Source: Mobula hypostoma | Lineage: Eukaryota | Direction: 5' to 3' | Assembly: GCF_963921235.1 (NCBI RefSeq) | Contig: NC_086108.1 | Span: forward strand, 51,090,001 to 51,154,000 | DNA: 64,000 nucleotides | In this document: piece by piece, positions 23,042-50,115 of the stretch | How the letters are laid out: every line of letters starts with the position of its first letter | Position numbering within the stretch: the first letter of the stretch is position 1 | Notes under the pieces: generated by a model | What the model was told of the DNA's origin: nothing | The model's input: only the letters and a program-made list of their open reading frames with translations | Database searches by the model: none | Made by a program: the position numbers and the translations under genes

Positions 23042-23596
23042 CTATGAGTGAGGTCTGCACATTAATTGCAAATTTCTAATTGCCATTGTGAAAACTGAAC
23101 TGCTGCAGTCAAATTAAAAGAGGAGTTCTGCAATTTCTGTATCAGCAACAATCAAGGAATAGCTCGTCAAAGTCAGGATGGTGAAACTTTGTGGAAAATT
23201 CAAAGGCTTATGACTACTACTACTTTGGGAGTCAGGTCAGGGCCTTGCCTTGCTACTGGTACCACGTAGCCCAGTACTACCTGTCTTGGGTCGGGTTGTC
23301 GGCGACTCAACCGGCACACCTCCTGGTGCTCTTCGGTTAACCAGGGAGGAGGGTGTGTGGCACCCAGCAGGACTAAAAACAAAACCTGTCAAAGGGCGGA
23401 TGAACTCTTTGTGAGTCAACAGCCACCTACTGTCTGCGTGAGGAGTGGCGCACCACACAGTCTTTCGTTTCACGCCTTGAAAGGCAAGGCAAAGGCTTAA
23501 ATACTACTTTAATACAGCAATGAATCTTTGAAAGCAAATTGCATAGCTAGCTGAATATAAGTGCAATTGATCTTAAATGAAAAACTGAACTGAAGT

Positions 23597-43035: not shown

Positions 43036-43194
<159 letters not shown>

Positions 43195-46100
43195 CTACTG
43201 TAATGGATTTACTCATATCTATGCACAGAAGCAGACTGTATTTAATTCATACGGTGAAGTTTTCACCTGTAGCCTCAAACTTCACTGTTACAACTTCCAC
43301 AACACTCAAAAGACCATATTCATGAATATTACAGAAGACATACCTTAACTGAAAAAGCTATGTTTTTGGTTTATTTGGTGAATTCAACCATTTCATCCAG
43401 TTCACAATAGGACCCTCATCCCTTTTAAAGATTTCAAGCACTCAGTTCATTGTAACAGTATTGAGTTTTCAAAATACTCCATTTTTATAAGATCACTGAA
43501 TTTTTACACAGGAAACAAAAAACAATGAAATTGAAGTACAGAATCATGATTTAAATAAACGAGGTGGCAAAGACTTGAGGGAATGAATACCCTCACTCTG
43601 TTATTATAATCCCATTTCTGGTTGTGCAACAATGGGCTGCACCACTTATCTGGAAACACTAAAATTTACAAATACAATGTCTATCTATAAATAACCTCCA
43701 TGGTGGAAGGTTCAAGCAATTTGTTTACTTTGTATTTTCAACATAGTCATACATCTCCTGCCATTAACAGGTGAAAAAGATTCATTTGTCATTGGCAATA
43801 AATTTTTAATTGCACATACTCCAGTCAGCTCTTTTCCTCTCCAAAAGAGAAGTTTAGAAGCTTAGACGTGTGAGTATTGGCCTCAAACATTTTCTGTGAT
43901 TAAGTTAGTCTGGAGGCATTCTATTTTAATGTATGGTATCATTTAAATGTTGGACCACAGTATGAAAAAGATCTAGAACATCTTGTAGCACAGCAGCAGG
44001 ACAGCATAAAGTGAAACAAAAATTTATTGTTTCTCTGAGCATGAACTACACATTTCAGTAAATTTTGAGATTAAGACTACTGCAAATTACACAATCACAG
44101 TGAATTATTTTTCAACAAAAAGATACTAAAGATTTTTCAAAAATCAAATTGAACTGAAAACTATTTAAAAGAAAGCTGCTTTAAGTTTAATGGCCTGAAT
44201 TCAGAATATAATGAAACAATTTATTTTCATTTGCTGAAGAAGTTATAATGTCCTTTAGTATCACAGTGATTAAAAGAATTACCTTTGTGCCTGGGTATAA
44301 AGTTTTGATTTTCAAATAGCTTTATTCCTACAGCCAGCCAGCACCGTCTTACACAGAGTGACAATGCCTTATTATCGGAGGACATAAAATTTAAGGTCAG
44401 TAGAAGAAAGTTTATGGGAGATATCAGAGATAGGTTTTTACCCTTTAACCTTTCCTACATCTCCTTTCAGAATGATTCTGTCTCAGCTGCAGGTCAACAA
44501 GCACAAGAATATGTGCTACTGTTTCTTGATGTGAGATTGAATATAGATAGCAAGATGATATACTGAAGATCACAGCAGGTGGAGAATTCGAGTAGAACAT
44601 TAATTACCGTATTTGAGGTAATTGATGACCAATGGACAAGGATTACAGGATTAGATGAACTGAGCCTAAGGCAGCAGATGAAATCATAGAAACCATAGAA
44701 ACTACAGCACAGAAACAGGCCCTTTGGCCCTTCTTGGCTGTGCCAAACCATTTTCTGCCTAGTCCCACTGAACTGCACACGGACCATATCCTTCCATACA
44801 CTTCCCACCCATGTATCTGTCCAATTTATTCTTAAATGTTAAAAAAGAACCCGCATTTACCACCTCGTCTGGCAGCTCATTCCATACTCCCACCACTCTC
44901 TGTGTGAAGAAGCCCCCCCCAATGTTCCCTTTAAACTTTTCCCCCCTCACCCTTAACCCATGTCCTCTGGTTTTTTCCTCCCATTGCCTCAGTGGAAAAA
45001 GCCTGCTTGCATTCACTCTATCTATACCCATCATAATTTCATATACCTCTATCAAATCTCCCCTCATTCTTCTACGCTCCAGGGAATAAAGTCCTAACCT
45101 ATTCAACCTTTCTCTGTAACTGAGTTTCTCAAGTCCCGGCAACATCCTTATAAACCTTCTCTGCACTCTTTCAACCTTATTTATATCCTTCCTGTAATTT
45201 GTTGACCAAACCTGAACACAATACTCCAGATTCGGCCTCACCAATGCCTTATACAACCTCATCATAACATTCCAGCTCTTATACTCAATACTTCGATTAA
45301 TAAAGGCCAATGTACCAAAAGCTCTCATTACGACCCTATCTACCTGTGACGACACTTTTAGGGAATTTTGTATCTGTATTCCCAGATCCCTCTGTTCCAC
45401 TGCACTCCTCAGTGCCTTACCATTAACCCTGTATGTTCTACCTTGGTTTGTCCTTCCAACGTGCAATACCTCACACTTGTCAGTATTAAACTCCATCTGC
45501 CATTTTTCAGCCCATTTTTCCAGCTGGTCCAAGTCCCTCTGCAGGCTCTGAAAACCTTCCTCACTATCTACTACACCTCCAATCTTTGTATCATCAGCAA
45601 ACTTGCTGATCCAATTTACCACATTATCATCCAGATCATTGATATAGATGACAAATAACAATGGACCCAGCACTGATCCCTGTGGCACACCACTAGTCAC
45701 AGGCCTCCACTCAGAGAAGCAATTCTCTACCACCACTCTCTGGCTTCTTCCATCGAGCCAATGTCTAATCCAATTTACCACCTCTCCATGTATACCTAGC
45801 GACTGAATTTTCCTAACTAACTTCCCATGCGGGACCTTGTCAAAGGCCTTACTGAAGTCCATGTAGACAATATCCACTGCCTTCCCTTCATCCACTTTCC
45901 TGGTAACCTTCTCGAAATACTCCAACAGATTGGTCAAACATGACCTACCACGCACAAAGCCATGTTGACTCTCCCTAATAAGCCCCTGTCTATCCAAATG
46001 CTTGTAGATTCTGTCTCTTAGTACTCCCTCCAATAACTTACCTACTACTGACGTTAAGCTCACCGGCCTATAATTTCCCGGATTACTGTTCGATCCTTTT

Positions 46101-46546
46101 TTAAACAACGGAACAACATGAGCCACTCTCCAATCCTCCGGCACTTCACCCGTAGACAGCGACATTTTAAATATTTCTGCCAGGGCCCCCACAATTTCAA
46201 CACTAGTCTCCTTCAAGGTCCGAGGGAACACTCTGTCAGGTCCCGGGGATTTATCCACTTTAATTTTCCTCAAGACAGCAAGCACCTCCTCCTTTTCAAT
46301 CTGTACAGTTTCCATGGTCTCACTACTTGATTCCCTCAATTCCATAGATTTCATGCCAGCTTCCTTAGTAAATACAGACGCAAAAAACCTATTTAAGATC
46401 TCCCCCATTTCCTTTGGTTCCGCACAAAGCCGACCACTCTGATCTTCAAGAGGACCAATTTTATCCCTTACAATCCTTTTGCTCTTAATATACTTGTAAA
46501 AGCTCTTTGGATTATCCTTCACTTTGACTGCCAAGGCAACCTCATG

Positions 46547-47808
46547 CAACACACATCAAAGTTGCTGGTGAACGCAGCAGGCCAGGCAGCATCTCTAGGA
46601 AGAGGTGCAGTCGACGTTTCAGGCTGAGACCCTTCGTCAGGACTAACTGAAGGAAGAGTGAGTAAGGGATTTGAAAGTTGGAGGGGGAGGGGGAGATCCA
46701 AAATGATAGGAGAAGACAGGAGGGGGAGGGATAGAGCCAAGAGCTGGACAGGTGATAGGCAAAAGGGGATACGAGAGGATCATGGGACAGGAGGTCCGGG
46801 AAGAAAGACAAGGGGGGGGGGACCCAGAGGATGGGCAAGAGGTATATTCAGAGGGACAGAGGGAGAAAAAGGAGAGTGAGAGAAAGAATGTGTGCATAAA
46901 AATGAGTAACAGATGGGGTACGAGGGGGAGGTGGGGCCTAGCAGAAGTTAGAGAAGTCGATGTTCATGCCATCAGGTTGGAGGTTACCCAGACGGAATAT
47001 AAGGTGTTGTTCCTCCAACCTGAGTGTGGCTTCATCTTTACAGTAGAGGAGGCCGTGGATAAACATGTCAGAATGGGAATGGGATGTGGAATTAAAATGT
47101 GTGGCCACTGGGAGATCCTGCTTTCTCTGCGGACAGAGCGTAGATGTTCAGCAAAGCGGTCTCCCAGTCTGCGTCGGGTCTCGCCAATATACAAAAGGCC
47201 ACATCGGGAGCACCGGACGCAGTATATCACCCCAGTCGACTCACAGGTGAAGTGTTGCCTCATCTGGAGGGACTGTTTGGGGCCCTGAATGGTGGTAAGG
47301 GAGGAAGTGTAAGGGCATGTGTAGCACTTGTTCCGCTTACACGGATAAGTGCCAGGAGGGAGATCATTGGGGAGGGATGGGGGCGACGAATGGACAAGGG
47401 AGTTGTGTAGGGAGCGATCCCTGCGGAATGCAGAGAGAGGCGGGGAGGGAAAGATGTGCTTAGTGGTGGGATCCCGCTGGAGGTGGCGGAAGTTACGGAG
47501 AATAATATGTTGGGCCCGGAGGCTGGTGGGGCGGTAGGTGAGGACCAGGGGAACCCTATTCCTAGTGGGGTGGTGGGAGGATGGAGTGAGAGCAGATGTA
47601 CGTGAAATGGGGGAGATGCGTTTAAGAGCAGAGTTGATAGTGGAGGAAGGGAAGCCCCTTTCTTTAAAAAAGGAAGACATCTCCCTCATCCTAGAATGAA
47701 AAGCCTCATCCTGACAGCAGATGCGGCGGAGACGGAGGAATTGCGAGAAGGGGATGGCGTTTTTGCAAGAGACAGGGTGAGAAGAGGAATAGTCCGGATA
47801 GCTGTGAG
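46547..47808 (-). mobile_element. 5'-truncated Penelope-like retroelement (RT thumb, GIY-YIG endonuclease, 3' terminal region) with 13-bp TSD
   Basis: SSSHPVSCKNAIPFSQFLRLRRIC, CKRNKCYTC, GVIYCVRCSRCGLLYIGETRRRLGDRFAEH; TSD aggcaacctcatg at 46534-46546 and 47809-47821. Confidence 0.93.
46609..46644 (-). ncRNA. Minimal type-I hammerhead ribozyme motif of the Penelope-like element
   Basis: Minus strand AGUC-CUGACGA-A-GGGUCUCAGCCU-GAAA-CG-UC^GACU: stem I AGUC/GACU, core CUGANGA and GAAA, palindromic ACGU at stem III, GUC cleavage triplet. Confidence 0.75.
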
Positions 47809-49149
47809 AGGCAACCTCATGTCTTCTTTTAGCCCTCCTGATTTCTTTCTTAAGTATTTTCTTGCACTTCTTATACTCCTCAAGCACCTGATTTACCCCC
47901 TGTTTCCTATACATTTCATACAACTCCCTCTTCTTCTTTATCAGAGTTGCAATATCCCTTGAGAACCAAGGTTCCTTATTCCTATTCAATTTGCCTTTAA
48001 TCCTGACAGGAACATACAAACTCTGCACTCTCAAAATTTCCCCTTTGAAGGCTTCCCACCTACCAATCACATCTTTGCCAGAGAACAACCTGTCCCAATC
48101 CACGCTTTTTAAATCCTTTCTCATTTCTTCAAATTTGGCCTTCTTCCAGTTCAGAACCTCAACCCTAGGACCAGATCTATCCTTGTCCATGATCAAATTG
48201 AAACTAATGGTGTTATGATCACTGGAACCAAAGTGCTCCCCTACACAGACTTCTGTCACTTGCCCTAATTCGTTTCCTAACAGGAGATCCAATATTGCAT
48301 CCCCTCTAGTTGGTCCCTCTATATACTGATTTAGAAAACTTTCCTGAACACATTTTACAAACTCTAAACCATCTAGACCCCTAACAGTATGGGAATCCCA
48401 ATCAATGTATGGAAAATTAAAATCCCCTACCACCACAACTTTATGTTTCCTGCAGTTGCCTGCTACCTCTCTGCAGATTTGCTCTTCCAAGTCTCGTTGA
48501 CTATTGGGTGGTCTGTAATACAATCCCACTAATGTGGCCATACCTTTCCTGTTTCTCAGCTCCACCCATAAGGACTCAGTAGACAAGCCCTCTAATCTGT
48601 CCTGCCTGAGCACTGCTGTAATATTTTCCCTAACAAGCAATGCTACTCCCCCACCTTCCATTCCTCTGCCTCGATCACATCTGAAACATCAGAACCCTGG
48701 AATATTAAGCTGCCAGTCCTGCCCCTCCTGTAGCCAAGTTTCACTAATTGCTACAACATCATAATTCCACGTGTCAATCCACGCCCTCAACTCATCCGCC
48801 TTCCCCGCAATACTCCTAGCATTGAAATATATACACCTCAGAAGATTTTTACCACCACTCACAACCTTTCTATCAGCAGATTTGCTTAAACTTTCAATAT
48901 AATTTATTTTCACCCCAATCACACTGTCAGCTCTGGCACTCTGGTTCCCATCCCCCTGCAAATCTAGTTTAAAGCCTCCCCAATAGCACTAACAAAGATG
49001 ATGACATAAGTATGCATTGTTTATTGAAGATATACGGTACACTACTGAATTAAATGTTCACCTCCAACTCAAGAGATTGCTGAGGTTTATAAATCTCCTG
49101 GTTCAGCTTAATGCAGCGGTATTATTAGCAGAAGCAGTACTTATTGCAG

Positions 49150-49400
49150 GGGGAGGGAGGGGAAGGGAGGAAGGGGAACGTCGAACGTCGACTCAGACCA
49201 TGAGAGTCCTGCGTCGGGCATTTTCATGCCTTACAAGGTGCAGATTGGAAGTCTGTGTGGGGCACCAGTCCTCGCACAGACTAGAGCAATGTGTGATTAA
49301 GTGCCTTGCTCAAGGACACAAACACACTGCCACAGCTGAGGTTCGAACTAGTGACCTTCAAATCACTAGACGAACGCCTTAACCACTTAGCCATGTGCCC
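49150..49400 (-). mobile_element. tRNA-derived SINE (5' part) with Pol III boxes and CORE-like domain
   Basis: Minus strand: A box TGGCTAAGTGG, B box GTTCGAACC, then gtgtccttgagcaaggcacttaa. Confidence 0.75.
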
Positions 49401-49923
49401 AGCACAATACTTATTGCAAGTATGTATGTAAGTAAGTAAGTAAGTATGGTAATATGTGTAACATTTAATTAGAGAAGTTGATCCTGTAAACCGAGAAGTG
49501 AACAAAGAAAAAAAATCAAGGAGAGGTAGAACAGTGTTTTGAATGTACACATGAAACCTGTCCCTATTTAGTGACATAAGCAAGGACAAGAAAATAATTA
49601 ACAGAGGAAGCAGAGTTAATTAAGACAAAGTAAATTTATTGTCAGCAGATTAATCTAAGAGATGAAGAGTGTAGCAGATGGAAAAAGCAATTAGAAAACA
49701 ATGTTGGGAAGTAAGTCAGGCTGTGGCAAATCCTGGAGATGACTTGGTCAAGTGGACAAGAGGTAATGTGGCTGTAATTATTTGTGTTATCAATGAAGTA
49801 AATAGTTAATAAGCCACTGTGCTGCTGTTTAAGGTTGATTTATAATTCACACAATACCAAAATTGGGTTTTGCATTTTTTAAACCACAACTAAACTTTAC
49901 AATCATATTTGGATTATCCTTCA

Positions 49924-50115
<192 letters not shown>

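Follow-up and report, generated by a model that had tools for sequence, protein, structure and literature searches.

A minimal type-I hammerhead motif in an intron of a KAP-family gene: very probably an inert passenger of a truncated Penelope-like element

Minimal hammerheads of Penelope-like elements and the motif in the window

According to the published view, the minimal hammerhead ribozymes (min-HHRs) of Penelope-like elements (PLEs) work in pairs, as double hammerheads, on PLE transcripts arranged in tandem; dimeric PLE hammerheads are the subject of a paper by Lunse, Weinberg and Breaker. In the accessible text of the study on metazoan PLEs, no cleavage was reported for the minimal monomer of Schistosoma and low cleavage for its dimers and trimers; the examples named there come from teleosts, coelacanth, frog and reptile, and none from a cartilaginous fish, though the supplements may list some (Cervera and De la Pena 2014, PMC4209133). 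The available portion of the report on the Anolis Poseidon element states that its hammerhead cuts only with the element's protein and that no Anolis RNA-seq reads end at the hammerhead site (Frangieh et al. 2024, PMC11167929). A 2026 preprint, as far as its accessible part goes, records PLE-related type-I hammerheads in one chondrichthyan genome sampled and finds 44% of the copies of non-LTR retrozymes overlapping introns in X. tropicalis (bioRxiv 10.64898/2026.07.22.740005). Our search, which was short on subscription papers and supplements, found no report specific to a shark or ray PLE hammerhead.

In the window, that is, the whole stretch of 64,000 nucleotides of Mobula hypostoma DNA analysed here, core and stem pairing outlined a minimal type-I hammerhead motif on the minus strand at 46608–46645, with a predicted cut between 46613 and 46612. 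Direct reading of the 36-nt core stretch (minus strand, 46644–46609) gave the same letters and cut site that an earlier, sequence-only reading had claimed for 46609–46644. The conserved core (CUGANGA, GAAA and UH) and the GUC site are all intact in this copy: C3–A9 occupy 46640–46634, an extra A after position 9 lies at 46633, stem II with its loop takes up the 12 nt of 46632–46621 (G.U, G-C, G-C and U.G around four bases), G12–A15.1 are at 46620–46617, the palindrome ACGU at 46617–46614 and C17 at 46613. The topology is that of type I, with a 5-bp stem I, in which four Watson–Crick pairs are joined by a possible U.G of 46645 with 46608, and a 4-bp stem II including two wobbles, while loop III is missing and the palindromic ACGU stands in its place. 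No second copy of the 36-mer was found at up to 14 mismatches on either strand of the window, which agrees with the earlier statement that no second monomer lies nearby.

The resemblance to a hammerhead might be a chance match inside a repeat, as the bare core pattern occurred at chance level in the window (nine matches vs. 6.2 ± 2.5 expected) and the folding z-score of the 36-mer was an unremarkable −0.97. Rfam, too, speaks for chance, with no match over the window at gathering thresholds and no hammerhead match in a search local to the motif at E ≤ 10. The descriptor requiring stems I and II found this site as its sole match in the window. In dinucleotide shuffles the relaxed form of the descriptor matched in 4 of 300 and the strict PLE-type form in none of 300, which speaks against coincidence, as does the distribution of the motif in related elements described below. 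The local Rfam search also gave a weak plus-strand match to PrrB/RsmZ (21 bits vs. a cut-off of 44), which was rejected as chance.

The parent element, its relatives and its family

The motif lies near the 3′-end of a 5′-truncated Penelope-like retroelement of 1262 bp (46547–47808, minus strand) and is sense to its ORF. The C-terminal ORF remnant (46938–47808, minus), which comprises the end of the RT region, a CX4CxxC linker and a GIY-YIG endonuclease, is cut off at its 5′-end and carries a frameshift near 47125. It is followed by a pyrimidine-rich 3′ non-coding stretch from the ORF stop to the hammerhead (46646–46937, minus), the core of which begins 298 nt past the stop, and by a tail of 66 nt (46547–46612, minus) between the predicted cut site and the point where the insertion ends. 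The direct repeat and the empty-site joint identified an unstranded target-site duplication of 13 bp, at 46534–46546 by the 3′-end of the element and at 47809–47821 by its 5′-end. The joint was seen in all three contig runs (7, 5 and 1 contigs), where contigs skip exactly 1275 bases, the length of the insert together with one copy of the repeat, and 13 letters can be assigned to either side. Most probably, these contigs stem from further copies of the host LINE, presumably of CR1 type, which bears APE endonuclease and RVT_1 domains, extends over approximately 44760–48990 on the minus strand and is split by the Penelope-like copy; its reading frame resumes beyond the insert. Apart from this, the insertion fuses the LINE endonuclease in frame to the Penelope remnant, which creates a predicted chimeric open frame of 574 codons (46964–48688, minus) in the order APE, then linker and GIY-YIG. 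The downstream part of the LINE is still uninterrupted, with a complete RVT_1 in a single open frame of 598 codons (44762–46555, minus), and this intact frame suggests that the LINE copy itself is fairly young.

Taken by itself, the GIY-YIG match in the insert is weak, with an E of 9e-4 that misses the Pfam cut-off, and the CxxC and His residues of this endonuclease are visible in the ORF remnant. Homologues of the remnant were found in 59 of 579 candidate proteins, many of them with RVT_1 upstream; the best match was a protein of Stegostoma tigrinum (zebra shark) with 63% identity, and the nearest named proteins belong to Stegostoma and Chiloscyllium, which points to a cartilaginous fish as the host. 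Close homologues have RVT_1 upstream; in this copy the RT core is missing owing to the 5′ truncation, and the second terminal repeat is absent for the same reason. The CX4CxxC linker precedes GIY-YIG in the element protein (P0001), and a CX2-5CxxC linker in this position marks the Neptune and Nematis clades according to the accessible text of Craig et al. (2021, PMC8557442). Judged by the linker, the parent is an endonuclease-bearing Penelope-like element probably of Neptune or Nematis type. The hammerhead motif thus belongs to its parent retroelement and is not a host element. The link to Penelope drawn in the sequence-only reading was right, but it had missed that the motif still sits in the parent element, nested in a LINE, and that the family is very abundant.

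Related elements were collected by a protein-based scan of metagenome contigs, in which 305 of 444 candidates were confirmed; among the best 80 of these 305 loci, 51 have at least 700 nt after the protein match. A sequence-only scan, in which no pairing was required, detected the exact core downstream of the ORF in 24 of the 51 in sense but in only one in antisense orientation, and allowing one change per box raised these numbers to 34 and 6, respectively. The 10.1–11.1 pair was G-C in all 24 exact and all 34 relaxed sense matches. For the alignment, the window copy was combined with 22 relatives, namely 21 downstream matches and locus L003, with one upstream duplicate and three minus-strand matches excluded. 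The extra base between 9 and 10.1 was A in all 21 downstream matches, and the palindromic 15.2–16.2 was CG in 19 of the 21 relatives. The stems of the 23 sequences co-vary, with a score of 0.606 vs. 0.190 after shuffling, the set having been chosen for pairing so that covariation is partly built in; the sequence-only scan serves as the test free of this bias. Since the same motif recurs on the same strand and at the same position after the ORF, a coincidental resemblance has a next-to-nil probability, and the claimed identity as a minimal type-I Penelope hammerhead gains support. In one locus (L014) the ORF is flanked by two identical motifs at a distance of 3066 nt, and three others (L005, L034, L038) possess an inverted upstream copy of the hammerhead; these four show the typical PLE architecture. 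Four further loci (L027, L046, L065 and L074) have C at core position 4 (CCGA for CUGA) and otherwise retain most of the motif; this could represent a recurrent variant or decay. The motif pattern with both stem I arms gave no matches in metagenome and viral contigs, and the protein-based scan of viral contigs confirmed none of 131 candidates.

Comparison with the relatives points to decay of the window copy. Position 11.1 (46621, minus) is U here and C in all 22 aligned relatives, making the window copy the sole sequence of the 23 with a G.U at 10.1–11.1; the context fits a CpG transition. This agrees with the weakened stem II described earlier, which has two wobble pairs, one of them this G.U where the relatives have G10.1-C11.1. 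A loop II base (46625, minus), likewise in a CpG-transition context, differs from most copies of the family, as in three runs another base accounts for 69–90% of the family depth. Where the window frame has Leu, a zebra-shark read-through protein shows Pro; this alignment, though weak (E 0.84), is consistent with C at 11.1. Besides this protein, no same-family read-through proteins covering 11.1 were found, the one other match being unrelated and repetitive. Based on distant relatives and this single weak zebra-shark alignment, U11.1 is likely private to this copy and would have arisen by CpG decay. The literature search found no published rate effect of G10.1.U11.1, so that its damaging effect is presumed from conservation.

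The Penelope-like family is clearly very large. At a likeness threshold of 82%, two DNA runs contributed 275,539 and 273,429 contigs that aligned to 46300–48000, none of which spanned the whole locus. In run X1, which may be the window's own source, the summed contig depth, a quantity that does not equal copy number, peaked at 10.1M in the bin that contains the motif, compared with approximately 2M at the 5′ part of the element and 0.4–1.0M in the flanking LINE. In a family of such abundance, an intronic sense copy is to be expected. The loose ends of contigs pile up at the motif edges 46608 and 46642–46644 (398 and 471 in X2, 68 and 16 in X9). One explanation would be subfamilies with nothing but the hammerhead block in common, another short copies that begin at the edge of stem I. 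Run X9, which may be an RNA run but whose contigs cannot display RNA ends, and run X21, with 4 reads, have no bearing on expression or cleavage.

Predicted folding and the fate of the intron transcript

On both sides of the motif there are minus-strand exons that match the Pfam KAP profile (PF05804), one upstream (49950–50115) and one downstream (43044–43169); altogether four of the five candidate exon frames searched matched this profile on the minus strand. The two flanking exons are consecutive in the profile (490–546, then 545–588). We take this vertebrate KAP gene to be KIFAP3, and the sense orientation of the motif within it, claimed in the sequence-only reading, is borne out by these exons. 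The motif is located in the middle of the 6780-nt intron 49949–43170 on the sense strand, with the donor 3337 nt and the acceptor 3443 nt away.

In the minimum free energy structure of the monomer, core G5–G8 pair with 15.2–17, the strand of the cleavage site. Stems I and II were predicted in short contexts with pair probabilities of 0.88–1.0 (44-nt context); across five contexts, the probability that both stems form while the core stays open came to about 0.001 or lower. Folded together as a double hammerhead, two copies reached −11.5 kcal/mol vs. −22.0 kcal/mol for two monomers. As nearest-neighbour energies ignore non-canonical pairs of the core, tertiary contacts, magnesium and proteins, these values only predict that the monomer folds its core into an inactive helix. 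The earlier suggestion that the intron could be self-cleaved is not supported, given the lack of stem III, the predicted misfolding of the monomer and the minimal monomer described without cleavage in the accessible text of PMC4209133. The same reading had supposed that activity may be low due to the weak stem II and the lack of a second monomer nearby; the weakness of the stem would indeed impair this copy as an enzyme, but it gives no protection as a substrate, since in a dimer the site would be cut by the core and stem II of the partner.

Considering these results, we regard it as very probable that a truncated and frameshifted Penelope-like copy in a LINE brought in the motif as its terminal-repeat hammerhead, and that the motif is an inert passenger removed uncut with the intron. 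In an active element, tandem transcripts would be processed by pairs of such motifs, two copies joining through ACGU into a double hammerhead, possibly aided by the protein of the element. The copy studied here has no partner in the window and its core is predicted to fold onto its own cleavage site. Taking the mammalian elongation rate of 3.5–4.1 kb/min given in the available text of PMC10274809, which may differ in this fish, the 3443 nt to the next exon would be transcribed within about 1 minute. Without a partner, with the predicted misfold and with so short an interval, cleavage would be negligible and the KIFAP3 intron would be spliced out uncut; on these models, cleavage of the KIFAP3 pre-mRNA at the motif is unlikely. 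On how exons might stay tethered when the intron between them is cleaved, the literature search found nothing.

The site might also be cut occasionally in trans by an intact family member, which would provide the core and stem II and pair via ACGU and stem I, perhaps with the aid of a protein, so that a small fraction of the introns would be cut and the mRNA would be affected hardly or not at all. The substrate half of the motif (ACGUC/GACUG) is intact and independent of its own stem II, the family is abundant enough to make partners conceivable, and protein-assisted cleavage was reported for the Anolis element in the accessible part of PMC11167929. The expected complex is poor, however, as just 4 + 5 intermolecular pairs would form per junction and the dimer fold is less stable than two monomers by approximately 10 kcal/mol; even in cis, dimers cut slowly according to the available text of PMC4209133, and the Anolis RNA-seq described in that of PMC11167929 shows no RNA ends at the site. 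Moreover, the same intron offers no better substrate strand: the search for trans substrate strands detected 19 weak minus-strand sites including the motif itself, none of the others being in this intron. Occasional cutting of this kind is accordingly improbable. A wider version, set in a cartilaginous-fish lineage with very many sense intronic copies sharing ACGU and stem I, would make decayed intronic sense copies the trans substrates of intact members, maybe together with Penelope protein, leading to low-level intron cutting genome-wide, KIFAP3 included, and to selection against intact sense copies; we consider this very improbable.

At 49184–49193, 2.6 kb upstream in the same intron and likewise on the sense strand, 10 nt are perfectly complementary to the cleavage-site segment. 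They are located in a stretch at about 49150–49410, which we take to be SINE-like and which has a weak second copy near 23450. Pairing with this segment would block rather than activate the motif, and the match is probably due to chance.

Alternatively, the motif could have been recruited by the host as a regulatory ribozyme of the intron, reducing KIFAP3 splicing or setting its timing, as has been proposed for CPEB3 or the amniote RECK hammerhead. Its sense orientation, mid-intron location and intact core would suit such a role, for which precedents are described in the accessible texts of PMC10274809 and PMC6155905. On the other hand, the motif resides in a repeat that has itself inserted into another repeat, with a broken parent ORF, it has neither stem III nor a partner, and it departs from its relatives at the conserved 10.1–11.1 pair (1 of 23 sequences), as decay predicts; the functional precedent has a half-life of 2–3 min in the available part of PMC10274809. 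Co-option is therefore extremely improbable. A domesticated intronic hammerhead of RECK type was also considered and was rejected because of the missing loop III, the predicted inactivity of the monomer and the lack of an Rfam hammerhead match.

Thus, the motif is an ordinary passenger and adds a further copy to a class of motifs known since 2014. The locus matters little alone, being intronic because its parent repeat is very abundant, and its use is that of a data point. A genome with so many copies allows one to ask whether intact sense-strand intronic motifs are depleted compared with antisense ones. Such a depletion, if true, would show that PLE hammerheads cut host pre-mRNA in vivo, a question that calls for the whole genome and goes beyond this locus.

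Comparison with described systems

The amniote hammerheads of RECK, CTCL and DTNB and the HDV-like ribozyme of CPEB3 resemble the motif studied here in being sense ribozyme motifs in an intron of a protein-coding gene. The accessible texts describe these host-gene ribozymes as conserved across species, with a half-life of minutes for CPEB3 (PMC6155905, PMC10274809), while the window motif is one copy of a high-copy repeat without stem III and shows signs of decay. The non-LTR retrozymes share the PLE-related type-I hammerheads; in the available part of the preprint they are tandem non-coding repeats, in contrast to the single copy attached to ORF sequence found here (bioRxiv 10.64898/2026.07.22.740005).

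Among the PLEs, the Anolis Poseidon element PAc is similar in its terminal-repeat hammerhead, followed by a short tail that ends the genomic copies (PMC11167929, accessible text). It belongs to another clade, as Penelope/Poseidon elements are without the linker in the consulted part of PMC8557442, and its ribozyme was assayed and found to be protein-dependent (PMC11167929, accessible text), whereas the window motif is a predicted ribozyme. The Neptune and Nematis PLEs, as described in the available text of Craig et al. (2021, PMC8557442), have in common with the window copy the CX2-5CxxC linker (CX4CxxC here) before a C-terminal GIY-YIG, the 5′ truncation and the hammerhead downstream of the ORF; the window copy differs in the missing RT core and in having neither a tandem nor an inverted partner.

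The closest likeness in the motif itself is to the min-HHRs of metazoan PLEs. As far as the accessible text of PMC4209133 describes them, these have the same type-I topology with short stem I, the extra base between 9 and 10.1, the palindromic 15.2–16.2 without loop III, and the terminal-repeat location, with a lone motif in a truncated copy. The window copy differs in its 4-bp stem II and in G10.1.U11.1, which replaces the highly conserved G-C, a min-HHR trait that lies outside the search descriptor. With five of the six testable sequence features of min-HHRs present and G10.1-C11.1 as the one lost, the motif is best filed as a degenerate copy of this class.
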